A DNA stretch of 64,000 nucleotides from an uncultured delta proteobacterium. GTDB taxonomy: Bacteria > Chloroflexota > Dehalococcoidia > Dehalococcoidales > BS750m-G39. The stretch is from NCBI GenBank assembly GCA_963739245.1, contig CAVTZP010000005.1, positions 153,314 through 217,313 on the forward strand, in the 5' to 3' direction. The translations under genes and the position numbers were made by a program. The notes beneath the pieces were generated by a model, which saw nothing but the letters and a program-made list of their open reading frames with translations, had not been told where the DNA came from and ran no database searches. Position 1 is the first letter of the stretch; each line of letters starts with the position of its first letter. Shown in pieces: positions 6,663-63,787 of the stretch.

Positions 6663-7571
6663 CTACTTAGCCCGTGGGTGAGATCTCTCATAAGCGAGCC
6701 GAATATGGTCAGTGGTGAGATGGGTGTAAATCTGGGTGGTTGAGATGTTGGCATGACCCAAAAGTTCTTGAACCGAGCGCAGGTCAGCCCCTCCACTCAA
6801 CATATGGGTAGCAAAGCTGTGCCTTAGGGTATGGGGGGTAACCCGAGCCTCCAGGCCAGCTTCCTTGGCATAGCCCTTCAATATCTGCCAGAGTCCCTGC
6901 CTGGTCAGTCTCTCGCCACGGCGATTGAGGAACAAAGCCTTTTCCTCGCTGCTGCGTACCAGATGAGGGCGCGCTTCGGTTAAATAATCCTTTAATACCA
7001 GAACCGCACGAGGAGCAATAGGGATAATCCGCTCTTTATGCCCCTTGCCGAAGCAACGTACGTAGCCATCATCAATATTTATGTCAGTCAAGTTTAAAGA
7101 CACTAGCTCGCTTACTCTCATGCCACTGGCGTATAATAGATGCAGCATCGCACTATCTCTCTTGGCTTCCGGCGTTGACCGCTTGGCTGGTTGTTCTAGC
7201 AAAAGGCGGGCCTGAGCGATTGAGATTGGTCTGGGCAGTGACTTTCCCACCTTAGGTGACGGCACATCCCGCGTCGGGTTATCCCGCAAAATGCCCTCAG
7301 CCACCAAAAAGCCATAGAAGGACTTGATCGCAGCTATCTTGCGGGCGACGGTGGTGGCAGCATATCTTCTCTCCTTAAGCTCAAGGAGGTAGCGCAGCAT
7401 GGAGTCGCGGTCAAAAGCTGCCCAAGGGGGGATAGTGCCCCGCCTTGCCGCCTCCTTCTCAACAAAGCTAGCCAGTTGATGCAGGTCGTTCTGATAGGCA
7501 AGCTTGGTGTTCTCGGAAAAGCCCTTTTCCACAACCAGATAGTTTAAAAATTTGTCAATAACTTCTTTCAC
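6663..7571 (-). CDS. Tyrosine recombinase, XerC/XerD type
   Basis: N-terminal SAM-like domain (FLNYLVVEKGFSENTKLAYQNDL). Catalytic ASGMRVSEL, HTLRHSFATH and LGHANISTTQIYTH. GTG start. Confidence 0.9.
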   Translation of the reverse strand: MKEVIDKFLNYLVVEKGFSENTKLAYQNDLHQLASFVEKEAARRGTIPPWAAFDRDSMLRYLLELKERRYAATTVARKIAAIKSFYGFLVAEGILRDNPTRDVPSPKVGKSLPRPISIAQARLLLEQPAKRSTPEAKRDSAMLHLLYASGMRVSELVSLNLTDINIDDGYVRCFGKGHKERIIPIAPRAVLVLKDYLTEARPHLVRSSEEKALFLNRRGERLTRQGLWQILKGYAKEAGLEARVTPHTLRHSFATHMLSGGADLRSVQELLGHANISTTQIYTHLTTDHIRLAYERSHPRAK

Positions 7572-23908: not shown

Positions 23909-24721
23909 ATGTTAGATTTTTTGTCAAGCCTTCCTCCAATAATACAAGCCCTTCTTGCTGCCTGTTTTACCTGGGCAATGACTGCCGTTGGGGCAGCGGT
24001 AGTATTTGTTGTTACCGATGTAAATAGAAAGCTGTTTGATTTGATGCTGGGTATTGCCAGTGGCATCATGTTGGCGGTTATTTATTGGTCGCTGCTGGCA
24101 CCGGCGATTGGGATGGCCAGAGGCGGTAGCCTTCCTGCCTGGTTTCCGGCGGCGGTGGGTTTTCTTGTGGGCGGTATTTTCCTGTGGGGTATTGATAAGG
24201 TACTGCCCCACATCCACCCCGGCTTTCCTGCCGAGGAGGTTGAGGGTATTAAGACCACCTGGCGGCGCAATACCTTACTTGTTCTGGCTATGGTTTTGCA
24301 TAATATTCCCGAGGGGCTTGCCATCGGGATTGCCTTTGGTGCTGCCGCCGCTGGCTTGCCTTCGGCAACCTTAGCTACAGCCATCGCCCTGGCTATTGGT
24401 ATTGGGATTCAAAATTTCCCAGAGGGGCTTGCCGTCTCTGTGCCTCTTCGTAGTAGCGGGATGTCCCGCTTGAGGAGTTTCTGCTATGGACAGCTATCGG
24501 CGATAGTTGAACCTATTGCCAGTGTTATTGGTGCTGTCGGCGTAATTTTTTTCCGGTCTGCCCTGCCTTATGCTCTAGCCTTCGCTGCCGGGGCGATGGT
24601 CTTCGTCGTAATTGAGGAAATAATCCCGGAGTCTCAACGTAGCGGAAATGTGCATCTAGCCACTATGGGGGCAATGGTCGGTTTTGTCATAATGATGATA
24701 CTTGAGGTCGCCTTCAGCTAG
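23909..24721 (+). CDS. ZIP family (ZupT/GufA-like) divalent metal transporter
   Basis: Eight-TM profile with HNIPEGLAIG and QNFPEGLAVS motifs. Confidence 0.85.
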   Translation: MLDFLSSLPPIIQALLAACFTWAMTAVGAAVVFVVTDVNRKLFDLMLGIASGIMLAVIYWSLLAPAIGMARGGSLPAWFPAAVGFLVGGIFLWGIDKVLPHIHPGFPAEEVEGIKTTWRRNTLLVLAMVLHNIPEGLAIGIAFGAAAAGLPSATLATAIALAIGIGIQNFPEGLAVSVPLRSSGMSRLRSFCYGQLSAIVEPIASVIGAVGVIFFRSALPYALAFAAGAMVFVVIEEIIPESQRSGNVHLATMGAMVGFVIMMILEVAFS

Positions 24722-24768
24722 AATATATTGATGCCATCCTCAAGCGATTAAAGCCCAGCTCTAAGTCA
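24717..24768 (+). pseudogene. Orphan diverged copy of the 3' end of the 47-aa ORF
   Basis: GCTAGAATATAT is shared exactly with 23832-23843. It is followed by GAT GCC ATC CTC AAG CGA TTA AAG, against GAT GCT ATC CTC AAG CGG CTA AAA in the intact gene. Confidence 0.6.
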
Positions 24769-24856
24769 ATAATTTACAATCGCAATTTATAGACAAATCA
24801 AAACTTATGTTATATGCTATTATTAAAGATACGAAGTATCCCGTTTGGGGGCTAAT

Positions 24857-25774
24857 ATGAGACGAAAGGAAATAATACAAGCCGGTCAAAAAATAATTGA
24901 TGCGATTACAAGAAGTGAGATTCTTAAAGGTTTTGAGGAGACGGCGCATAGGGTTTCACCAGAACGAGAAATTTTTAATGCTGATTTAATGTATAAATTG
25001 CATCAGTATTCCCTTCTTGCTTCGGATTACGGGCCTATCGAGAAACAGATTATCGATATCTTGGGGTTAACTGATTTGACTAATCCCCAAAAATGGTCAG
25101 ACGTTGTTTATACCAGAGAGGGTAGCTACGGGGCTATTTTCGTATGGAATAGGTATTTATATTTTGCCGTAAACTATCTTCCGCTATTTCTGGAATTAAT
25201 TAAGCCTGATTATTTAGCTATTACACAAGAAAAGCCGGAGGAACTTCCCGATGAATATAAGGGGAAAGCGCTATTAACTACAATTCTCGTGGAAGATAGT
25301 AAGCATCCAGTCACACTAGAGCGCGTCATGGACCTTCTATCGGGTATATCTTCGCTGTACGAGGCTTCCTCTACAATAATTAAACACCCGGCTGTTCCTC
25401 TGATTATGATTGGCTGTGATTCGGGTAGTGAAAAGGCGTTTGATTTCCTCGGCGCAGAAAAAATCATGCAAATGGTCAAAGAAATTCTTCTTTCACTTTG
25501 GGATAGCATTATGTTCTTCCATGAACGTCAGGTTGCGCAAAAGTTTGAATTGGTTGCCGAATCATTACCTATTATTGAGCAAATTGATGTTTTAGAAGAT
25601 GAAGATAAAATTGGGCATGAAGAGGCGGCGTTGCTTTGTAAAAAGATAGTTGATTCTGTGCAAAAGTTTATTACCTGCGGGGCTTTTATACCAGAAATGC
25701 AGGAGAGAAGTACCTTTGACCCTCATGAGCTTATGATGCCGGAACCGAAACTTCTGGAAGAGGGTCAAAACTGA
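24857..25774 (+). CDS. Hypothetical protein (305 aa from ATG 24857), AT-rich island gene
   Basis: Long ORF with no domain I recognise. Its 3' end overlaps the convergent AlbA_2 gene by 44 nt. Confidence 0.55.
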   Translation: MRRKEIIQAGQKIIDAITRSEILKGFEETAHRVSPEREIFNADLMYKLHQYSLLASDYGPIEKQIIDILGLTDLTNPQKWSDVVYTREGSYGAIFVWNRYLYFAVNYLPLFLELIKPDYLAITQEKPEELPDEYKGKALLTTILVEDSKHPVTLERVMDLLSGISSLYEASSTIIKHPAVPLIMIGCDSGSEKAFDFLGAEKIMQMVKEILLSLWDSIMFFHERQVAQKFELVAESLPIIEQIDVLEDEDKIGHEEAALLCKKIVDSVQKFITCGAFIPEMQERSTFDPHELMMPEPKLLEEGQN

Positions 25775-27284
25775 AAAGAATGAAGAGCAATATATTTCCT
25801 CCGTGTGACTTGCTCTGATTCTGTACCTGACCATCTGTCAATGTTGAGTATATTAACCCTTTACAAAGCATCGATTCTAATACTTTTCTATATTCATCTG
25901 TATCAACGATTTTTAATATATCAATTATTTGTTTAGCCGTCATTAATTTTCCAAGTCTTCCTAATAATAGTATTTTTTGTTCGTCTTTAGACGCATTAAA
26001 AATAGAATAACTACCAAGCCAAGCTTGGTCTCTTTCAGAAAATATTGATTTGCTATACAAGGTAATTTTAAACCCGTTACCTGTTTCCATAAGCTCGGGT
26101 TGAACTAGGTCATATTCCGCCATAGCGCGAAATATACGGGGTATCCCTTCTCCTAACTCTCTCATATAACCAATTTCTCTAAGTACTCTTGCGATATGCG
26201 GATTTCTCGACTCGTGTACGCGCCTTAAAGCTATTAAGTCTGCTAGCTTGATTGTGGACAAAAGTCTACCAGGGCTAATTATTTCAATCCTATCATCAAA
26301 TATGAATATTTCAATCCCTTTACCTTGGACTGAATAATCCCTATGTGCTATCGCGTTTGTTAGTGATTCTCTACACGCAGTCTCTGGATATAGTAGTGTT
26401 TCAGCAAAAATACTGTCTTTACCAAGCTTGGTAACAGCCAAGTTCGGTCTCAAGATGTCCCAACCACTATTAAATAGTTCCATTATGTTTCCTTCTGTAA
26501 ACTCATCCTTCTCAACCTCATACTGTTCCCCTATTGAAGTGCCAACAACACGTATTATCCTTATTTGTGACCTTGGATGCCACCTTGAAATATTTTTGGC
26601 AAAGAGTAGTAATGCTGCTCTTTTCAATTTCATACCTTGTGGTGAGTACTCCGCCAAATGTAGATATTGCAGAAATAGTTCAGGTGACGATCCTGGCATT
26701 ATCTTTTCAGCTAAAGATGCTACTAAATCAATATTTAGGTCACTCACCTCTGCATTAGTCACTAGCTCACGGTCATACTCCATAGCTTTTATTTCTTGTC
26801 TCTGCTTTTGGATTTGCTCTGGAGATACCGGTCTGTTCTCCCTATCTCTTCTCTGTAAACACTTGCCATCACTCGTTAAATGAACATAATCCACGCTTTT
26901 TTGAACAGAGAAATATAATATTTTACTGTCAGGTATACTACTTAAATTTAGTGACCTCACAATAGGATTTATCAGAGGTGTATCCTTATGAACATGTGTA
27001 ACAGGCGCATTTAAAATCGTATCCAGATGTTCTCTTATGTGGGGAACACCAGTAGTATGGCCGTCATCTTCTACTCCTACAAGTAGTTCACCGCCATCTG
27101 CATTAGCAAAAGCGACTAATGTTTCACCAACGTCTCTAGCTATAACTTTTGCCTCTCTCCTTCTAGGACCCTGAGGTTGCTGCTCATAGGCACTCTTAAA
27201 TTCTCTGAAATGGCTTTCACCCAGATTAATTGATTGCTGGATTCTTTTTTGGAGGGTCAATACTATTGATGTGTCACTACCCAT
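25731..27284 (-). CDS. Schlafen/AlbA_2 domain plus HATPase_c_4 (RecG-C-like) ATP-binding protein
   Basis: ESHFREFKS...VGETLVAFANADGGELLVGVEDDG is the AlbA_2 part. ESLTNAIAHRDYS...IEIFIFDDRIEIISPGRL is the HATPase_c_4 part. Confidence 0.75.
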   Translation of the reverse strand: MGSDTSIVLTLQKRIQQSINLGESHFREFKSAYEQQPQGPRRREAKVIARDVGETLVAFANADGGELLVGVEDDGHTTGVPHIREHLDTILNAPVTHVHKDTPLINPIVRSLNLSSIPDSKILYFSVQKSVDYVHLTSDGKCLQRRDRENRPVSPEQIQKQRQEIKAMEYDRELVTNAEVSDLNIDLVASLAEKIMPGSSPELFLQYLHLAEYSPQGMKLKRAALLLFAKNISRWHPRSQIRIIRVVGTSIGEQYEVEKDEFTEGNIMELFNSGWDILRPNLAVTKLGKDSIFAETLLYPETACRESLTNAIAHRDYSVQGKGIEIFIFDDRIEIISPGRLLSTIKLADLIALRRVHESRNPHIARVLREIGYMRELGEGIPRIFRAMAEYDLVQPELMETGNGFKITLYSKSIFSERDQAWLGSYSIFNASKDEQKILLLGRLGKLMTAKQIIDILKIVDTDEYRKVLESMLCKGLIYSTLTDGQVQNQSKSHGGNILLFILFSFDPLPEVSVPAS

Positions 27285-44634: not shown

Positions 44635-44656
44635 AGTTTCCTTTCAGGATTTTATG

Positions 44657-44735
44657 AACCTCACCCCCTGTATCCCCCTCTCCTTGTTAGGAGAGGGGGA
44701 GGAGATTTTTAGAGAGGGGGCGAAGCCCCCTCTCT
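44657..44735. repeat. Composite GC-rich hairpin element, copy D
   Basis: AACCTCACCCCC at 44657-44668. Hairpins CCCCCTCTCCT/AGGAGAGGGGG at 44674-44699 and AGAGAGGGGGC/GCCCCCTCTCT at 44711-44735. Confidence 0.8.
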
Positions 44736-44788
44736 TTAACTCTTCCTCTTATCGCGACCCTGCAATAAATAGCTGCAGTTTTCATAGT

Positions 44789-49811: not shown

Positions 49812-49898
49812 TCTTCCCCCCTGTTTCTAGTGTTATCAATCTGAAGTGTAACAGTATCCTTAAATATGGTCAAGAGATTGTTATGTATGGAGAGTCAA

Positions 49899-49987
49899 AA
49901 GAGAGACGAAACCCCTCTCTAAAATCTCTTCCCCCTCTCCTTTTAAGGAGAGGGGGATAAAGGGGGTGAGGTTAATAAATAATCTCT
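49899..49987. repeat. Composite GC-rich hairpin element, copy E
   Basis: Hairpin CCCCCTCTCCTT/AAGGAGAGGGGG at 49931-49956. Tail GGGGGTGAGGTTAATAAATAATCTC at 49962-49986. CCCCTCTCTAAAATCTCTT is shared with copy B. Confidence 0.8.
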
Positions 49988-49991
49988 ATGG

Positions 49992-55206: not shown

Positions 55207-55977
55207 TTATTTTGCCTTGTAGACCGGTTTTCTCTTTTCGACAAAGGCTGTAGTCCCTTCAGCAAAGTCCTCGGTGCCCATGATATAGGCGACGAGGGAG
55301 TTCTCCAGCCTTAAGCCATCTTCCAGGGTCATGTTATAACCCCTAACCATAGCTTCTTTAGCCGCCCTGACCGCTAGAGGTCCCGCTTGACAGATAACCT
55401 GAGCCCATTCCTTCGCTGTGGTCATAACCTCGGCTTGAGGCACAACCTTGTTTACCAGGCCTATCCGGTATGCCTCCTGGGCGTCTATCGGTCTTCCCAT
55501 AAGCAGTATCTCAGCGGCTTTACACCAGGGGACCATTCGGGGCACTCTCTGTGTCCCTCCCCACCCCGGAATCAGACCTAGATTTACCTCGGGTGTGCCC
55601 AGGCGAGCCGTCTCCGAGGCTATTCTTATATCGCAGGCTAGGGCTATTTCCAGCCCACCGCCCACTGCCAAGCCGTTGATGGCGGCGATGAGCGGCTTCC
55701 ATAGCTCAAGGCCGCGCATTATAGTCGGTGGAAACGCCCACTGGTCCCGGCGATGCTCCTTCATGAAGGATAGGGTATCCTTTATATCGGCGCCACCGCA
55801 GAAAGCCTTATCACCAGCACCGGTGATGATACCAACCCATGCTTCAGGGTCATCCCTGAAGTCCGCTATTGCCTTATTAAGTTCTCGCAACGCCTCCATA
55901 TTCATGGCATTCATTGCCTCGGGGCGATTAATGGTAAAGGTGGCGATTCTACCTTCCTTTTTGTAGTCAATAGCCAT
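55207..55977 (-). CDS. Enoyl-CoA hydratase (crotonase)
   Basis: ITGAGDKAFCGGADI and NGLAVGGGLEIALACD. Confidence 0.85.
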   Translation of the reverse strand: MAIDYKKEGRIATFTINRPEAMNAMNMEALRELNKAIADFRDDPEAWVGIITGAGDKAFCGGADIKDTLSFMKEHRRDQWAFPPTIMRGLELWKPLIAAINGLAVGGGLEIALACDIRIASETARLGTPEVNLGLIPGWGGTQRVPRMVPWCKAAEILLMGRPIDAQEAYRIGLVNKVVPQAEVMTTAKEWAQVICQAGPLAVRAAKEAMVRGYNMTLEDGLRLENSLVAYIMGTEDFAEGTTAFVEKRKPVYKAK

Positions 55978-56083
55978 AATAGACCTCCTAAGTGAATTTT
56001 TAGGGTTAATCGTCGACTAAAAAGGGGGATTAACTATGTGGATTTTAACAGAGGCTTGTATTAGCGTCAAGGCGGGATAGAAA

Positions 56084-56112
56084 TTGACAACATAATTTAA
56101 CCGTGTTATATT
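56084..56112 (+). promoter_or_regulatory. Sigma-70-type promoter of the tRNA gene
   Basis: TTGACA (56084-56089), a 17-nt spacer, then TATATT (56107-56112). The tRNA 5' end is at 56121. Confidence 0.5.
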
Positions 56113-56120
56113 CTGCCTGC

Positions 56121-56192
56121 GGCAGCGTAGCTCAGGGGTAGAGCAGGGGACTCATAAGCCCTTGGTCGGCGGTTCGAATCCACCCGCTGCCA
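56121..56192 (+). tRNA. tRNA with CAU anticodon (Met, or Ile2/lysidine type); no encoded CCA
   Basis: Manual cloverleaf: acceptor GGCAGCG/CGCTGCC, D arm GCTC-AGGGGTA-GAGC, anticodon loop CTCATAA, variable TGGTC, T arm GGCGG-TTCGAAT-CCACC. The GACTCATAA...CTTGGTC context resembles ileX-type tRNAs. There are two stem mismatches (A31-G39, C51-A63). Confidence 0.8.
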
Positions 56193-56545
56193 CTTATTGT
56201 TGAGATGAGACACATAATAAAAAGGTGGGATGCCACTTACCCGATTTTAGTCAGGGCTCCCCTTACGGGAGGGGATGGAGGCAATTTAAGCTGCTAGGCA
56301 GAAAAAAATTAAAACGTCCTGCAGCACCCTGATTTCCCCTGGCAGAGCCCACCCAGTCCGGTGATAGCTCTTTATCCAGAAAGGAACGAACTTCTTGTCG
56401 GAATCCCTCCTTCCCCGCTTTGGCAATCAAAGGTGCAGGCTGTCCAAAAGACCCAAGATACTCCAAGCCATTATCTCCCTAATAAGTAGGTCTTTCTAGA
56501 CAGCCTGCTTACTATTACTGCAAAACTCCTAATCTTAACGTCCTA

Positions 56546-57808
56546 TTATGGTGCTGGCCACGCTGGCTTGGGGTATACAAATGATGCGGTAAGCTTAGTG
56601 GCAGGCCAGTTACCTCCTCCTACAACTTCCATAACCCCACTTTGCCACTGGCCAATCTCTCCGGGATGGCATTCCTTAGCCAGAAGTCCACCGCCATCAC
56701 CGAACATCGTAAACCAAGTCGATCCCAGAACCGTATCAAGCTTCGTGGTAGCAATTATATCTCTTACCTTTTTCTGGTCAATGGCTCCAGCCTTCTCAAC
56801 AGCCGCCTTCCAAATGTCCAGCGACGCCCAGTAGAGACAATGTCCCCACCAATCATTGATTTCTTCAGGCTTGCCATTGTAGAGTTTATCAGCTAATTCA
56901 TTGAGTGCGGGAGAAGTCTTCCGGTTAAAGGTGGCAAAAGCACTTACTCCCTCCACCGCTGGACCAAACGTTGTATGATAGAACCCGAAATTGGCCCCGG
57001 GTCCGCATACCATAGCCTTTGGGTTATAGCCAAGCGCTATTGCCGTCCCAGTAATCGGCATGACCTGGTCGGGATAAGCAAGAACCATAAAGACATCGGC
57101 ACCAGACGCCTTAGCCTCCAGTACTATGGGCGCGAAGTCCTTAAGGGTAGGCGGAATGCTCACATTTGCAATGATTTTAATTCCCACCCTGCCGAATTCA
57201 TTACCAGTCACGCCGGAATACTCTATGCCAAAGACGTCAGCCATGTAGGTTACATATGCCGTCTTCGCGCCGGCTGCGGCAAGCATATCAGCCAGAACCG
57301 GTATCTGGTACCAGTCGGAAAAATTCAAGCTGCAAAACACGTAGGGTAGAGCAGGAAGCATGTCCTTGATAGTCGTGGCACCACCCTCGGCGGTCACTAG
57401 TACATACCCGTACTTATTGGCTATAGGACCTTGAGCAAAGAGAAAAGCGCTGCCACAGGCAGGCCACAGAAAGTCAACCTTGTCCTCTAGAATCAGTTTT
57501 TCCGTCAGTCTCGTCATCGTGCCCACGTCAGATTTATCATCATATATGAGTGTATCTATGGGCAGTTTCTTGCCAAGCTCCGCGATAAATACCCCGCCCG
57601 CGGCATTGACCTCAGGAACCCATGTCTCATAGATTGGCCGGAAAGCCGAGTCGCCAATAATAGTCATTGGGCCGGAGAGAGGTCTTGACATACCAACAAC
57701 GATTTTATCTTTGGCTGGCGGTTTTGGGGTACAGGCAGAGCACAAAGGCAATACTACTAGTACTACTAGTACTAAGGCTATTAAACCAAACAATACCTTT
57801 TTGTTCAC
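56546..57808 (-). CDS. ABC transporter substrate-binding lipoprotein (type 1 PBP, Liv-like); orphan, with no adjacent permease
   Basis: GTG at 57808 after AGGAG. Signal peptide with lipobox LPLCSAC. Leu/Ile/Val-binding-like fold motifs. Confidence 0.8.
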   Translation of the reverse strand: MNKKVLFGLIALVLVVLVVLPLCSACTPKPPAKDKIVVGMSRPLSGPMTIIGDSAFRPIYETWVPEVNAAGGVFIAELGKKLPIDTLIYDDKSDVGTMTRLTEKLILEDKVDFLWPACGSAFLFAQGPIANKYGYVLVTAEGGATTIKDMLPALPYVFCSLNFSDWYQIPVLADMLAAAGAKTAYVTYMADVFGIEYSGVTGNEFGRVGIKIIANVSIPPTLKDFAPIVLEAKASGADVFMVLAYPDQVMPITGTAIALGYNPKAMVCGPGANFGFYHTTFGPAVEGVSAFATFNRKTSPALNELADKLYNGKPEEINDWWGHCLYWASLDIWKAAVEKAGAIDQKKVRDIIATTKLDTVLGSTWFTMFGDGGGLLAKECHPGEIGQWQSGVMEVVGGGNWPATKLTASFVYPKPAWPAP

Positions 57809-58161
57809 TTGTTTCTCCTTTCTAAGACTTCTACAGATTGTCTCGGTCTTATTATCATAGAATCTCACATCACTTCTCACCTCCTCAGATGGCTGTTAGC
57901 TAGCGTCCTTGCTTTAAGCTCCCATTACCATAATTGGGCTGAGTTAACGTACCAACAGTGGCGCCGGGGAAAGAGTTTAGCAAAGATAGTATTTAAACTA
58001 TAGCAGGGCAAGAGTGAAATTGCTAGACAAACTTTTCTATGATATCATAAATAAAAGAATGTATTAACTCAACTCGTTCTGACCTAATTCAGAAATGTGT
58101 AAAGGCACCCTGCTGAGGCAATTACTAAAGTCTGAATCTAGACCTATGTTGGTTAATAGCG

Positions 58162-59067
58162 ATGAAACCGCCAAAGTATAACCTTTATCATCTCATCGTC
58201 TTTTATTTCGTTGCCAGTGAAAAGAGCATAACAGCCGCTGCCGAGAAGTTATGTCTGACTCAACCAGCGGTAACTCACCATATTAAGTGCCTGGAGAAGG
58301 CTGCCTCCGTAAAGTTCCTTGATGTAAAGAGGAAAAAAGTGAGCCTTACTTACGCCGGGGAAGGTCTCTTCCAATACGCGACGGAAGTTTACCAGCAACT
58401 CATTAGCGCAGAAAAGTTTGTGGAGGATATGAAAGAGGCCAGCCTCCATGTTGGTATAGCCATGAGTTTCAGCTCCACCATTGCCTCAGCAGCATCCGCA
58501 TTTGAAGAGCTCTACCCTCATGTGAAGCTGACAGTTAAAAATGCACCCTCCTTTGAGGTTGTTCAAGATGTTCTAAGTTCGCAAGTTGAACTTGGTCTCG
58601 TGGTCAGCATGGACTATGGAATCCCTAAGCTGAGGCCTATAACAATCTCAACGGAGGAAAAACTAGTGTTTGTTGCTTCTCCGTCTAACCCCATTTTTCA
58701 AAAAGAGCATATAGAGTTGAGAGACCTCTGTGATTACCAACTGGTCTTGGGACCTGAGACATCAGCTACACGTAGAGTAGCTTTTAGCAAGTTTGAAGCT
58801 GAGGGACTGAAAGTGAATCCCCTTATAGCCGTGGAGGTAAATAGCGTGGAATGGGGTAGGGGTCTGGTTGAAAATGGAAAGGGCATAGGTTTCTACTACA
58901 TAAAGAACGTAGAAAAGGAAGTCTCTGAAGGACGGCTGAGAGTACTTCCCCTAACCGATGATATACGGGTAGGGGTAGATGCTCTTGTCCGCGTAGATGC
59001 TTTTCTACCTCCAATTGCAGAGAGATTCATTTCCTTGCTTAGAGAAGCATTTCAGAGTCATCGCTAA
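58162..59067 (+). CDS. LysR family transcriptional regulator
   Basis: N-terminal wHTH (SITAAAEKLCLTQPAVTHHIKCLE) plus a LysR substrate-binding domain. Confidence 0.9.
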   Translation: MKPPKYNLYHLIVFYFVASEKSITAAAEKLCLTQPAVTHHIKCLEKAASVKFLDVKRKKVSLTYAGEGLFQYATEVYQQLISAEKFVEDMKEASLHVGIAMSFSSTIASAASAFEELYPHVKLTVKNAPSFEVVQDVLSSQVELGLVVSMDYGIPKLRPITISTEEKLVFVASPSNPIFQKEHIELRDLCDYQLVLGPETSATRRVAFSKFEAEGLKVNPLIAVEVNSVEWGRGLVENGKGIGFYYIKNVEKEVSEGRLRVLPLTDDIRVGVDALVRVDAFLPPIAERFISLLREAFQSHR

Positions 59068-59102
59068 CGAGCTTTCGTTACCGCTATCGTCTACGCAGAA
59101 AT

Positions 59103-59297
59103 CTAGTCTAGCATCTTCCTTAATTTCATGACCACAACAGAGAGCACAAGTGTGCTGACCCACAGTGAGAACCATGCTACACCCGCTAATCCGTGTTGGC
59201 TAAAACCCACGACAAACTCCCATATCAATCCTATTAAAGCCAGTAGGAACAGAACCCAAGCCGCAATCGACGCCAAAACTTTAAATATTTTTTGCAA
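59103..59297 (-). CDS. Small membrane protein (64 aa, 2 TM)
   Basis: Hydrophobic ORF only. Confidence 0.4.
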   Translation of the reverse strand: MQKIFKVLASIAAWVLFLLALIGLIWEFVVGFSQHGLAGVAWFSLWVSTLVLSVVVMKLRKMLD

Positions 59298-59548
59298 GTC
59301 ACTCTCCTTCTTTCCGTTATTATCGAAATGTTAATCCCGCTTCGGACGTTTGTCAAGAGTAGCAGTGCATTGCACTTATTTACCCAAGCCACTCAAAGTA
59401 TGTTTAGAAGCGCTGAAATACGCACAGTTCGCTAAAAAGTGTGATTCAGTGAGACCGGTTGACATTGAAGCTGGGAATAATCTATATTCGTTAGCATAAT
59501 GTTGACAAGAACTTGCTCTAAATCTTTATCTGAGGAGGGTACAATAAG

Positions 59549-59842
59549 ATGAATGTGCCTGCTATGTACTATGTGGGTTGTGGCTTTAACTGGTTTTTTG
59601 TACTACTAACCATAGGTGGATACTTTTACATTCTGAGTAAGACAGGCAAAAAATGGGTATTCATGCTCATATTTGCTGCGGAATGGGTGGTTATGGGGTT
59701 ATCGTATGTGTTTCTAATCAGCGGTGTATCTTCAGACGAATGGTATATAACACTCATCAGGACAATCGGATATGTATTATTCCTAGCAATGATATTGACT
59801 GCAATAGTAGAATTGACGAAGTTTGGGAAACGAGTTGAATAA
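59549..59842 (+). CDS. Small membrane protein (97 aa, 3 TM)
   Basis: Hydrophobic ORF preceded by GAGGAGGG. Candidate promoter TTGACA-18-TATATT about 90 nt upstream. Confidence 0.5.
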   Translation: MNVPAMYYVGCGFNWFFVLLTIGGYFYILSKTGKKWVFMLIFAAEWVVMGLSYVFLISGVSSDEWYITLIRTIGYVLFLAMILTAIVELTKFGKRVE

Positions 59843-60062
59843 TTAGGCGTATGAAGGTCTGTAGACCATCTAAATATGTCAAAAACATAAATGAGTAGAG
59901 CTTAACAATTAGCCATCTTGTGTTCTGACAAAACATCGAAATGTGCAGCTCAAAAACATCTCAAACATGGAGGAGGTTTCTTTCTTCTTTTTTTCTTTAA
60001 AGATTGTTGCATTATTGGCAATTATTTTTCTTCTTCTCTTTGTGATTCAAGCCCCGCAGTTA

Positions 60063-60091
60063 TTGACAGGCAATATCTACATTTGTATACT
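60063..60091 (+). promoter_or_regulatory. Near-consensus sigma-70 promoter of cbiMNQO
   Basis: TTGACA (60063-60068), a 17-nt spacer, then TATACT (60086-60091). Confidence 0.55.
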
Positions 60092-60157
60092 ATCAAGTAA
60101 ACTTGTTTTTAATCACCTCAGGTTGTGCAATATGCCACAATAAGGGGGTATACTGAA

Positions 60158-60952
60158 ATGCTTAAAAAAAGGGGCTATTGGCTTAGGGCCCCTATCGCGT
60201 TAGCGCTGGTACTTGCTCTCGGGCTATTCTTGTGCCCAGCCCCGGCATATGCCATGCACATCGCCGAGGGGATTTTGCCGGCGAGCTGGTGTGCGATATG
60301 GTATGTGATAGCGGCCATATTTGTGGTCTTCGGCATTATCATCATCAGAAAGAAGACCAGAGAGATAAGAGGGCTTATGCCTCTGCTCGGTATATCAGGG
60401 GCACTGATATTCCTGATTTCCGTTTTCCCCATCCCGGTACCCGTTTCGGGAAGTTGTTCTCACCCCTGCGGCACTCCTTTGGGAGCAATTCTGGTGGGGC
60501 CGTTTATTAGCACTGTTCTCGGAGCGCTGGCTCTTCTTATCCAGGCCCTGTTCCTGGCACACGGGGGCATAAGCACCTGGGGAGCTAATATCGTTTCCAT
60601 GGCTGTTGTCGGCTCTTTCGCTGGCTTTGGCGCCTTTATTTTGTTCCGGAGGTTCAACGCCCCAATATTTGTCGCGGCTTTCGCCGCCGGACTATTTGGT
60701 GATTGGGCGACCTATGCCACCACCTCTTTTGAGCTTGCCTCGGCTTTGCACGGTACCGGCTCGCTGTGGGGCATGTTTGGCGCCATTGCCCTAGCTTTTG
60801 CTCCCACTCAGTTGCCCCTGGGGATTTTGGAAGGACTGTTCACCGGGGGAGTGGTAACATTTGTCTATCAGCGTCGACCCGAGCTTTTGTCCCAGATAAT
60901 CCCAAAAGCTTTCAAGCCGGTGCCCACCCCGGTAAAAGGGGGTAGCCAGTGA
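60158..60952 (+). CDS. cbiM: ECF transporter substrate-specific component CbiM (cobalt/nickel)
   Basis: A signal peptide ending AYA is followed by MHIAEGILP, the metal-binding N-terminus of mature CbiM/NikM. The ATG at 60158 follows AAGGGGG. Confidence 0.9.
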   Translation: MLKKRGYWLRAPIALALVLALGLFLCPAPAYAMHIAEGILPASWCAIWYVIAAIFVVFGIIIIRKKTREIRGLMPLLGISGALIFLISVFPIPVPVSGSCSHPCGTPLGAILVGPFISTVLGALALLIQALFLAHGGISTWGANIVSMAVVGSFAGFGAFILFRRFNAPIFVAAFAAGLFGDWATYATTSFELASALHGTGSLWGMFGAIALAFAPTQLPLGILEGLFTGGVVTFVYQRRPELLSQIIPKAFKPVPTPVKGGSQ

Positions 60953-61251
60953 AAAGTATGTCCCGGATAATCGCAACCAGTATCGTGGTCGTTTTTGTGA
61001 TTCTGGCGGTCTGGGGATGGCTTGCCCTGTCCCGGCAGGCACCTGAGGGAGCCGAGGGTCCGTGGGGAGGGGTGGACGTTAATGTCATTGAAAAATATGC
61101 CACCGATGCCGGCAGGGAGCCAAAGGAGCCTTTGATTAACACTGACCAGGGTGACCTGTTGCTCTTTGTTTTTGCTCTGGGTGGGGCGGTGGGTGGATTT
61201 GTTGCCGGCTACTACTGGAGAAGGCTTATCTCCGAAAAAGCGGGGAGGTGA
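60949..61251 (+). CDS. cbiN: CbiN/NikN-like small component of the ECF Co/Ni transporter
   Basis: 100 aa with two TM segments. GDLLLFVFALGGAVGGFVAGYYW is analogous to the CbiN EIESLLF...G motif. Its start overlaps the cbiM stop. Confidence 0.6.
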   Translation: MKSMSRIIATSIVVVFVILAVWGWLALSRQAPEGAEGPWGGVDVNVIEKYATDAGREPKEPLINTDQGDLLLFVFALGGAVGGFVAGYYWRRLISEKAGR

Positions 61252-61271
61252 AGCGCCCCTGGCTGATATAG

Positions 61272-62054
61272 ATGTTTGATAAAAGCAGTATTTTTTCTGA
61301 CGTCTTTGCCCACAAAGAGAATCTGGTAACCGGGATAGAGGCGCGGACTAAAATAGTTTTTACTATTCTTGCCCTGGTGATTAATCTTTTGTCGCCGAGT
61401 GTCTATACGCCAATAGCCATCGCCTTTTTTTGTTTAATTACCCTAATGGCTATCAGGGTTCCGCCAAAGCTACTCGGGTTAAGGCTAATTATGCCTCTGG
61501 CCATGGCGGCGGTGGTGCTGGTTACGCAGATATTCTTCTACGGCACCACCCCTTTGTTTACTATCCCCTTTTGGGGCTTCAACCTGGTGGGTTATGAAGA
61601 GGGTTTGGCTCGTGGCCTTTTAATCATGTGCCGGGTAATCGGTGGCGTATCGCTAATATTATTTCTGAGTATGTCCACACCAGCGAATAAGTTGCTTCTT
61701 GCCGCTCGCTGGTTTAGGCTGCCTAAAGTCGTTATTGAGCTGGCACTGCTTATTTATCGCTACATCTTTGTCCTTATTGAAGAAGCGATAACTATAAAAG
61801 ATGCCCAGAGGGTGCGCCTGGGCTACGGCAACTGGCAGCAGAGCATGAGGTCGGTGGGCACGCTGGGCGGTATCCTCGTCTTACGAGCCTATGACCGGGC
61901 AGAGAGGGTCTTTGAGGCGATGATAGCGCGGGGTTACACCGGCGCTATGGCCATTAATTATACCGAACATTTTGGCAGGAAGGATTTTATCGCTGCCATT
62001 GGTTTAACCACTGTTCTGGCGATTCTCTATCTTTTAGGACGGTTGAGAGTATGA
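61272..62054 (+). CDS. cbiQ: ECF transporter transmembrane (T) component CbiQ
   Basis: Multi-span protein with the ARG signature region (AMIARGY). Confidence 0.85.
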   Translation: MFDKSSIFSDVFAHKENLVTGIEARTKIVFTILALVINLLSPSVYTPIAIAFFCLITLMAIRVPPKLLGLRLIMPLAMAAVVLVTQIFFYGTTPLFTIPFWGFNLVGYEEGLARGLLIMCRVIGGVSLILFLSMSTPANKLLLAARWFRLPKVVIELALLIYRYIFVLIEEAITIKDAQRVRLGYGNWQQSMRSVGTLGGILVLRAYDRAERVFEAMIARGYTGAMAINYTEHFGRKDFIAAIGLTTVLAILYLLGRLRV

Positions 62055-62890
62055 TAAAAACTGAAGCCTTGTCCTTTAGCTATGACGGTTTTAGTCAGGC
62101 ACTGGGTGAAATCAGCCTGGAGGTTAAGGACGGCGATTTTTTGGCCCTTCTGGGGGCTAACGGCTGCGGCAAGACGACGCTACTAAAAAACCTCAACGGT
62201 CTTTTGAGACCATCATCAGGTAAAGTCTTCTTGGATAATACGGAGCTTCGTTTTTTCAAAGATGAGGAGATTTTCCGGCGGGTGGGAATGGTCTTTCAAG
62301 ACCCTAATGACCAGCTTTTTGCGGCTACCGTGGAGCAGGATGTCGCCTTTGGTGCTGTGAACCTGGGACTAAAGCCGGATGAGGCTAACCATAGGGTTAA
62401 CAATGCCTTGAAGATGGTAGGAGCATCGGAGCTTGCTGGTAAGGCTATTCATACCTTAAGCTTTGGACAGAAAAGACGGGTGGCTATTGCTGGTGTTCTG
62501 GCTATGGAGCCAGAACTAATCCTGTTAGATGAACCGACAAGTGGCTTGGACCCCCGGGGTGTCAGTTCAATTATGCGTTTACTCAGGAAACTGAACAAAG
62601 AGAGGGGGACTACCATGATAATGGCTACCCATGATGTCGAGCTGGTGCCTCTATTCTCCGACCGGGTAGCTATTATGAGTAAAGGTAAGATAATCACCGA
62701 AGGACCACCAGGGAAGGTGTTTGCCGATACCGATATGATTAGGGAAGTAGAGTTAAGGCTACCACGGGTAGGTCATCTTATTGAGATTCTCCAAAAGAAG
62801 GAAGGGATAGATTTTCAGGAGATACCGCTGACTATTGGCGGGGCAAGGCGGGCGCTATTGAGATTGGCGGGGATACATCGCAGAAGTTAA
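62051..62890 (+). CDS. cbiO: ECF transporter ATPase CbiO
   Basis: GANGCGKTT, LSFGQKRRVAIAG, LILLDEPTSGLD and ATHD. Confidence 0.9.
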   Translation: MIKTEALSFSYDGFSQALGEISLEVKDGDFLALLGANGCGKTTLLKNLNGLLRPSSGKVFLDNTELRFFKDEEIFRRVGMVFQDPNDQLFAATVEQDVAFGAVNLGLKPDEANHRVNNALKMVGASELAGKAIHTLSFGQKRRVAIAGVLAMEPELILLDEPTSGLDPRGVSSIMRLLRKLNKERGTTMIMATHDVELVPLFSDRVAIMSKGKIITEGPPGKVFADTDMIREVELRLPRVGHLIEILQKKEGIDFQEIPLTIGGARRALLRLAGIHRRS

Positions 62891-62919
62891 GATGTGACTT
62901 TACAAATCGAGTTACTTTA

Positions 62920-62944
62920 GGCGGTTAAAATCCACCCGCCGCCA
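62920..62944 (+). other. Orphan tRNA 3'-end fragment (att-like direct repeat of 56168-56192)
   Basis: GGCGGTTAAAATCCACCCGCCGCCA against the tRNA GGCGGTTCGAATCCACCCGCTGCCA is 22/25 identical. Both carry the unusual CCACC T-stem strand. Confidence 0.65.
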
Positions 62945-62950
62945 GTTTTA

Positions 62951-63787
62951 TTATCCTTCTCTAACGGCTGCAAGCAGTGTCCCTGGACCACCGTGCACCC
63001 CAAGTCCTGGTCCTAGCCTGGCTAACCTAATCCGCTCTTGAGGGAATATAGAACCCATGCGCCCAGATAAAGCTAGTGCTTCATCAGGTGTAGTGTTATA
63101 CACAATAGCCAAATCTTGAATATTAGTGGTCTTTTTCACAAAGTCAAATAACTTGTCTATGCCTTTAGCCCGGGTGCGGACTTGACCAGCGGGCACCAGT
63201 TCTCCATCTTTTACAGTCAGTATCGGCTTTACACTCAATACTGAGCCTAGTAGTGCCTTCACCTTGCCAATACGCCCGCCTTTGGCCAGGTATTTAAGGG
63301 TATCAAGAAGGGCAAACAAATGTATCTTAGGAATGGTCTGTTTTGCCTCTTCCACCACCTTGTCCAGACTTCTCCCTGCCTTAGCCGCAGTGGCAGCAAC
63401 TATAACTATCAAGCCTAGACACATGCTCAGTGTCTCTGAATCAACCACTTCAATAGGGCATTTCGTCTTCAGCATATCCTTAGCCATCAGCGCTGAATTG
63501 CAGGTACCACTCAATTTACTGGAGACATGAATAGAAATAATCCCCTCAGCCTTCTGGGACAGCTTCTGGTACACATCGGCAAAATCCTGCGGAGTCGGCT
63601 GAGTAGTGTTGGGATGGATAGGGTCATGTGTCAACCTCTCATAAAACTCGTCCTCGCTGATGTCCACCCGGTCACGGTAGACCTTATCGCCAAAGCGCAC
63701 ATAGACCGGCACCACGGTAATCCCCAGCTCCTGAAGTAGCTGGTCAGGCAGGTCGGCAGTGCTATCGGTAACTATTCTTACCGCCAT
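62951..63787 (-). CDS. DegV family fatty-acid-binding protein
   Basis: MAVRIVTDSTADLP start and a length of about 280 aa. Confidence 0.9.
   Translation of the reverse strand: MAVRIVTDSTADLPDQLLQELGITVVPVYVRFGDKVYRDRVDISEDEFYERLTHDPIHPNTTQPTPQDFADVYQKLSQKAEGIISIHVSSKLSGTCNSALMAKDMLKTKCPIEVVDSETLSMCLGLIVIVAATAAKAGRSLDKVVEEAKQTIPKIHLFALLDTLKYLAKGGRIGKVKALLGSVLSVKPILTVKDGELVPAGQVRTRAKGIDKLFDFVKKTTNIQDLAIVYNTTPDEALALSGRMGSIFPQERIRLARLGPGLGVHGGPGTLLAAVREG

Follow-up and report, generated by a model that had tools for sequence, protein, structure and literature searches.

Genomic islands that target tRNA or tmRNA genes leave a characteristic arrangement, in which the sequence of the element regenerates the target gene and a displaced fragment of the original gene marks the far end (Islander, PMC4383910). 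The ssrA islands of Dehalococcoides are bounded by ~20-bp direct repeats of the 3' end of that gene and can lie in tandem, and some of them lack integration modules and have been described as cis-mobilizable or fixed (PMC3146451). Here we analysed a 64-kb stretch of contig CAVTZP010000005.1 from an uncultured member of the Dehalococcoidia (the window), in which an interval of ~6.7 kb (56194-62919) separates a tRNA(CAU) gene from degV. A first-pass annotation, made from the letters and their open reading frames (ORFs) alone, had read this interval as an island integrated at the tRNA gene and since deprived of its integrase. Our comparison with loci of relatives (designated by L numbers) argues, with a probability of roughly 0.8, that an ancestral tRNA(CAU) gene abutting the 3' end of degV has been a recurrent target of site-specific integration and that the interval would be the decayed, integrase-less remainder of one or more elements.

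As in Islander-type islands, the locus combines an intact target gene, a displaced 3' fragment that forms a direct repeat, cargo unrelated to the flanks and an occupancy that varies between lineages. Unlike those islands it lacks an integrase, its repeat has drifted at 3 of 25 positions, and its cargo comes from within the lineage and is only partly atypical in composition; because no integrase is present, Islander-type criteria would miss it. The Dehalococcoides ssrA islands (McMurdie et al. 2011, PMC3146451) are of the same class, with a single-copy small-RNA gene as the hotspot and with tandem islands such as we found in L006, but their target is ssrA rather than tRNA(CAU) and their enzyme is the serine recombinase DsiB, whereas the integrases of our relatives are tyrosine recombinases (Pfam Phage_integrase). 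With its tRNA target and without a recombinase, the island in the window falls outside the ssrA family. It also contains no reductive dehalogenase gene, in contrast to the ssrA islands, although one of the RNA-LysR loci, L093, has rdhA downstream.

The left (attL) side of the interval is formed by the tRNA(CAU) gene at 56121-56193 on the plus strand, which is the only tRNA called by ARAGORN in the window and matches the Rfam tRNA model over 56121-56192 with 59 bits. The gene is intact, is a non-initiator tRNA by its G1-C72 pair, either an elongator Met or an Ile2 tRNA (the second CAU tRNA of L041 is an initiator), and would represent the regenerated target. Orthologs occur in L041, L009, L074, L077 and L085/L099, with a compensated change in the anticodon stem (G28-C42 to A-U). 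A promoter scan placed a promoter-like site (TTGACA-17-TATATT with TG) at 56084-56112 on the plus strand, and the motif AATTGACA...ATATTCTG is also found upstream of the orthologous tRNA in L041, L074 and L077. An A31-G39 mismatch is conserved across the window and the same relatives (L041, L009, L074, L077, L085/L099), a T-stem mismatch is present in every lineage with differing pairs (C51-A63, A51-C63 or U50-U64), and CCA is not encoded by this tRNA or its orthologs, unlike other tRNAs of those contigs.

The T arm, 3' acceptor strand and discriminator base of the gene (copy 1, 56168-56192, plus strand, GGCGGTTCGAATCCACCCGCTGCCA) recur on the attR side at 62920-62944 (copy 2, plus strand, GGCGGTTAAAATCCACCCGCCGCCA), where they would represent the displaced, drifting native 3' end of the tRNA. 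The two copies are identical at 22 of 25 positions, and copy 2 is the sole second match in the window at up to three and still at up to seven mismatches. No second match appeared in 100 dinucleotide-preserving shuffles (0/100), and none is expected by chance, so that the repeat noticed in the first-pass annotation is real. Local alignment extends the match to 25/28 and not further into the tRNA body. Both copies form the GGCGG/CCACC T stem with its C51-A63 mismatch, and hence share the atypical CCACC strand on which that annotation had remarked. Further tRNA-tail repeats were found neither within the window (≤7 mismatches) nor at other tRNA-adjacent LysR loci. Two changes in copy 2 are unfit for a working tRNA, U69 to C, which breaks the A4-U69 pair, and C56 to A, which alters the T loop. 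The copy also varies within the species, differing by one base in the contigs L062-L066; it has drifted and is therefore a relic. Going by the few available differences, its age is about that of the split from the sister species.

Copy 2 lies 29 nt past the cbiO stop codon and 6 nt from that of degV, and a terminator or insulator between these convergent genes, resembling a tRNA end in structure only, would occupy the same place. A 6-bp GGCGGU/GCCGCC hairpin followed by AGUUUUAUUAU is compatible with this view. The fold is weak, however (-9.8 kcal/mol, z = -1.5), the terminator scan passed over copy 2, and both the copy and its flank have homologs in L041, at a real tRNA end, and in L067, at a 47-nt tRNA fragment. 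A secondary role as a weak terminator for cbiO is conceivable though unsupported, and it would leave the origin of the sequence unexplained, and we consider this explanation highly improbable.

The relatives reveal what the site looks like in other states. The conserved right-hand neighbour of the site, degV (62951-63787, minus strand, Pfam DegV), has homologs that place the window in uncultured Dehalococcoidia, and we compared its neighbourhood in 61 loci from representative genomes, among which gene order is otherwise not conserved. The degV stop codon of L041 is followed after 8-17 nt by an intact ortholog of the window tRNA on the other strand, and the trailer of this tRNA together with the 3' end of degV aligns with the flank of copy 2. 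L009 has the order degV, a sodium:solute symporter (SSF) gene and tRNA. In L006, degV is followed by an SSF remnant and a 36-nt tRNA tail, with a flank like the one in L009. Next come 6.9 kb of unrelated cargo (Sir2, an M54 peptidase, a radical SAM protein and a molybdopterin oxidoreductase), then a 44-nt tail and, last, a tyrosine integrase; the tRNA-tail repeats are at 7248-7272 and 14181-14205 of L006. L009 is the unoccupied form and L006 the multiply occupied form of one site. Five sequencing runs yielded same-species contigs (L062-L066, 98.7% nucleotide identity), in which LysR is found together with the small ORFs, cbiMNQO, copy 2 and degV. The sister species (L067-L073, degV 90%) has kept the genes upstream of degV and has a 47-nt tRNA tail directly after it, which runs from the anticodon stem to the discriminator with one mismatch (10333-10379 of L067); the genes past this tail are unrelated to those of the window and code for a radical SAM protein, ThiS, saccharopine dehydrogenase, ferredoxins and AFOR. 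Tails of 36, 44 and 47 nt with unrelated cargo at the tRNA-degV site of other lineages indicate tandem and independent integrations.

Part of this picture would also be expected if the tRNA gene had simply been duplicated and the degV-side copy had decayed, losing its 5' two-thirds without the involvement of a mobile element. Copy 2 is clearly tRNA-derived and degenerate, there is no integrase, and the cargo seems native to the lineage. Yet only the 3' portion is left in four independent lineages, and each time it ends at the discriminator base. On the 5' side the tails (25, 36, 44 and 47 nt) begin at the T arm or at the anticodon arm, which are reportedly the usual crossover sites of integrases. 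Furthermore, integrases are found at the same tRNA in L006 and L085/L099, and the cargo differs wholly between the lineages. Duplication followed by decay is hence an unlikely origin of the repeat.

On the left side of the site, crotonase, 3-hydroxyacyl-CoA dehydrogenase, thiolase and CorA genes precede the tRNA, all on the minus strand. The enoyl-CoA hydratase (crotonase) gene at 55207-55977 (minus strand) is the conserved neighbour, and its adjacency to the tRNA is kept in L074 (98% nucleotide identity), L077 (89% nucleotide identity) and L099 (crotonase 77% amino-acid identity). The match to the window breaks off 0-8 nt from the tRNA 3' end in L074 and L077, at 8 nt after the tRNA in L077. 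The strain represented by L074 is 98% identical and collinear on both sides, and it contains an additional 7,025 bases placed exactly between the 3' end of the tRNA and position 56198 of the window; this insert (2760-9784 of L074) encodes a protein of 1,603 residues as well as a beta-CASP nuclease. In L077, too, the tRNA is followed by a beta-CASP gene, a diverged one (67% nucleotide identity). The L085/L099 loci run from crotonase through the tRNA and ~1.2 kb of further sequence to a tyrosine integrase, and then to a structured-RNA module, LysR and LivK. This integrase is of the Phage_integrase type and 70% identical to that of L006, in which homology to the L085/L099 enzyme begins at residue 129. 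A split integrase of the SSV type in L006 was considered and rejected, as the overlap with tRNA fragment B is antisense tRNA translation only.

Given these differences in occupancy among relatives, the tRNA-degV site is an integration hotspot and 56194-62919 would be inserted DNA. The attL/attR signature proposed for the locus is supported by the intact tRNA and its flank in L041, by the other tails and by the integrase in L085/L099. The same-species contigs keep the gene order together with the repeat, so that the observation named beforehand as refuting, the same order without the repeat, did not arise.

The left junction suggests how the integrase may have been lost. At 56193-56205 (plus strand, CTTATTGTTGAGA) the tRNA trailer runs straight into the beginning of the RNA module (…TGTTGAGATG), and the sequence reads tRNA, CTTATT, GTTGAG, ATGAGACAC. 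The trailer resembles an element arm, CTTnTTTTTnAG, that follows the same tRNA in L077, L006 (fragment B) and L085/L099. The further left flank of the RNA module (…AAGCnnTTGTGCAA; GTGCAA joined to TGTTGAG) is present in L074, L079, L082 and L085 and missing from the window. A candidate decayed tRNA repeat at the far end of the L074 insert (AATCCA-----AGCCA) was rejected, since it is homologous to this left flank in L079, L082 and L085. The junction is likely the scar of a deletion that removed the integrase region, and the arm and integrase of an L085-like arrangement were possibly lost via TTGAG microhomology. The earlier proposal that a deletion had removed the integrase thus finds backing in L085/L099 and L074, but its original argument, a truncated gene remnant beside the tRNA, is unsupported (see below).

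Taken together, an integrating element would have recombined within the T-arm/acceptor part of the tRNA(CAU) gene. The element's own 25-nt copy would have regenerated the tRNA at 56121-56193, and the original 3' end would have been displaced by 6.7 kb and kept beside degV at 62920-62944. Deletion of the integrase and of the element arm next to the tRNA would have fused the tRNA trailer to the 3' side of the structured-RNA gene. Of the cargo there would remain the RNA-LivK-LysR module, the AT-rich patch and cbiMNQO, a cassette that has a promoter of its own. The island is predicted to be immobile by itself, and without an integrase neither excision nor circularisation would be expected. What the sequences show directly is the repeat, the homology of copy 2 and its flank to an intact tRNA with its flank, the differing fragments and cargo of other lineages at the site, the integrase at this tRNA in relatives and the indel that separates close strains exactly at the tRNA 3' end. 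For this genome we infer the integrase-mediated mechanism, the order of events and the microhomology deletion.

The cargo falls into three patches. Patch A (56199-59067) comprises the RNA, an orphan LivK-like solute-binding protein (56546-57880, minus strand, Peripla_BP_6) and a LysR-family regulator (58162-59067, plus strand), the two proteins being assigned by Pfam in agreement with the first-pass calls of a Liv-like lipoprotein and a LysR regulator. Many metagenomic contigs of Dehalococcoidia contain this patch with 70-90% nucleotide identity. It is sharply delimited, on the left at 56199 and on the right by the LysR stop codon, where the RNA-LivK-LysR module ends; homology to all LysR-centred loci ends at 59051-59067. 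LivK is present, absent or rearranged among these loci, and LivK orthologs with 74-78% identity adjoin the LysR gene in L082, L105 and L108. The LysR orthologs frequently have a tRNA gene as their neighbour (Lys, Ala, Pro, CAU). Patch B (59068-60153), with a GC content of 0.39, is found only in the same-species contigs and contains two small ORFs (59128-59334 and 59549-59842) and a near-consensus promoter-like site for cbiM (TTGACA-17-TATACT, 60063-60091, promoter scan).

Patch C (60154-62863) is the part to which homology of cbiMNQO to relatives is confined, with 83% nucleotide identity. The cbiM-cbiN-cbiQ-cbiO genes themselves, for a cobalt/nickel ECF transporter, span 60125-62890 on the plus strand. 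Their earlier assignment stands for CbiM, CbiQ and CbiO by Pfam and for the promoter-like site; between CbiM and CbiQ lies a 100-residue ORF of the size of CbiN, and Pfam gave no match for CbiN or for the two small ORFs. Rfam detected no riboswitch upstream of cbiM. Relatives with a CbiM 88-89% identical have cbiMNQO embedded in a large cobalamin operon, where cbiX/C and cbiD flank it. Compared with the clusters of L116, L118 and L120 the window copy is a precise excerpt, and no other cob genes occur in the window. A distant donor for cbiM was considered and rejected, as its nearest homologs are from Chloroflexota with 85-89% identity. The nearest homologs of the protein genes across the interval are likewise from other Dehalococcoidia or Chloroflexota, with 64-89% identity and a few fragments higher.

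The GC content is 0.40 in the LivK-LysR intergenic region, 0.455 in LysR, 0.39 at 59068-60124, 0.49 in LivK and 0.51 in cbiMNQO, against a window mean of 0.50, and the 2-kb segment from 58001 has a GC z of -2.6 and a tetranucleotide z of +3.2. The description of the interval as partly AT-rich holds for ~57.5-60.1 kb, but LivK and cbiMNQO are at the window mean. The interval is an old mosaic of three patches with separate histories and within-lineage homologs, rather than one recent, compositionally foreign island. Elsewhere in the window, the strongest compositional outlier lies at ~24000-27000, with a 2-kb GC content of 0.386-0.39 and the highest tetranucleotide distance, above anything in the island.

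The sharp patch edges at 56199, 59067, 60154 and 62863 would also fit an interval that is mostly ancestral chromosome, into which a small, later deleted element had integrated and in which subsequent insertions (transposition of cbiMNQO, insertion of LivK) had widened the gap. The 7-kb indel between close strains and the presence of the module near the tRNA in L085/L099 are likewise in keeping with such a history. No transposase or insertion sequence (IS) ends were seen, however, and we judge this account improbable. As the DNA between the regenerated tRNA and the displaced tail came with or after integration, it differs from recurrent integration into the tRNA gene only in the number and order of events.

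Several observations weigh against the reading of the interval as the remainder of integrated elements. The fully unoccupied order of crotonase, tRNA and degV is absent from the relatives compared, and in L041 the 5' side of the tRNA is occupied by a mod/tup-type ABC transporter rather than crotonase. The RNA-LysR-LivK module lies near the same tRNA in the much more distant L085/L099, and therefore patch A may be ancient rather than acquired in this species. The nearest homologs of the cargo are in Chloroflexota, with a divergence like that of the flanking genes, which gives no sign of a distant donor, and composition deviates only at ~57.5-60.1 kb of the interval. Finally, tblastn with three integrase queries found no integrase fragments over 55900-63100, no Pfam integrase was found among the island ORFs, and an excisionase was not recognised in 55900-63100 either; the first-pass statement that no integrase remains in the island is confirmed by the same queries. 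The window's sole integrase-like gene lies 49 kb from the tRNA, a 302-residue ORF at 6663-7571 (minus strand) that may encode a Xer-type recombinase and is similar to tyrosine integrases (27% identity with that of L085, E 2e-18).

The segment beside the tRNA turned out to be of a different kind than had been thought. An ORF at 56263-56466 (minus strand) had been taken for an acyl-CoA dehydrogenase remnant. Pfam gave no match to the acyl-CoA dehydrogenase domains (Acyl-CoA_dh_N, _M and _1) at E≤10, and tblastn with a genuine acyl-CoA dehydrogenase from L116 found none in the window at E≤1. The homologs of this segment have indels that are not multiples of three as well as long invariant blocks. 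The remnant being unsupported, there is no evidence of a truncating deletion from this source; the ORF overlaps a conserved structured RNA of ~136 nt (56219-56354, minus strand), which is supported by covariation and folds into a three-way junction with a long closing P1 helix, followed by U5.

The RNA was aligned and folded from 14 sequences, 13 of them distinct. Its consensus has 33 base pairs in a long closing helix, a 7-bp helix, an 8-bp hairpin and a small hairpin, and compensatory double changes were observed in 10 of these 33 pairs. As many as 98.8% of the alignment cells are paired, compared with 35-54% when the partners are slid by 1-3 columns. Read on the minus strand, all one-sided changes yield G-U, and read on the plus strand they yield C-A, which places the RNA on the minus strand, running from ~56354 to 56219. 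The junction strands are invariant. Rfam 15 contains no relevant match at E≤10 on either strand, and a full-text literature search gave nothing relevant.

A covariance model found one copy of the RNA in the window and 21 copies in 355 kb of LysR-centred loci; in a 1.0-Mb search that included the window, L074 and phage contigs, it found none in DegV-centred or other control loci. Two diverged copies were recovered in the phage-like IMG/VR contigs L121 and L122, which have no LysR; one of these copies has an initiator-like tRNA at a distance of 0.8 kb and a RecT gene nearby. These phage homologs had no Rfam match. A gapped pattern yielded 12 viral contigs as candidates for more phage homologs, of which only the two known ones fit the model. 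The RNA is located within ~100-450 nt of the LysR gene, either divergently upstream of it or ~100 nt downstream on the same strand, and the neighbours that come after it differ between loci (a liv operon, a reductive dehalogenase gene, two kinds of integrases or a tRNA). In L093, a 13.7-kb contig, there are two copies of the LysR-RNA unit (356-511 and 9824-9979), one of them followed by the reductive dehalogenase gene rdhA.

LysR-type regulators paired with small RNAs are known from enterobacteria, where OxyR is associated with OxyS and GcvA with GcvB, and GcvB represses livJ and livK. The RNA in the window similarly adjoins a LysR gene, is often divergent from it and frequently has a LivK-type gene next to it. 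It resembles the enterobacterial RNAs neither in sequence nor in structure, matches nothing in Rfam, and also occurs downstream of LysR in the same direction and in phage-like contigs without LysR. Even chances, in our estimate, attach to the view that it is a new family of structured non-coding RNA forming a conserved unit with LysR in Dehalococcoidia. It might act in trans under the control of LysR or as a regulatory or maintenance RNA of a family of integrative elements, and these are the functions that we consider likeliest.

Outside the island, a short sequence of ~35-85 nt occurs at 44651-44736 and 49891-49988 and recurs with 81-94% identity at several positions of L062, L067 and L074; it may be a small dispersed repeat of the genomes of the window, L062, L067 and L074.

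For annotation, the lesson of the locus is that neither the displaced tRNA tail nor the supposed remnant ORF is a gene. The island is a routine one, a scar of a known type, and the structured RNA, which has covariation support, is not in Rfam and is linked to tRNA-proximal variable regions and phages, is the more interesting lead and the part that is worth further work. The tRNA(CAU)-degV site would join the known integration hotspots of Dehalococcoidia, alongside ssrA. The cbiMNQO cassette indicates that this transporter can leave the cobalamin operon as a stand-alone unit with its own promoter, which may matter for the corrinoid or metal economy of these organisms.

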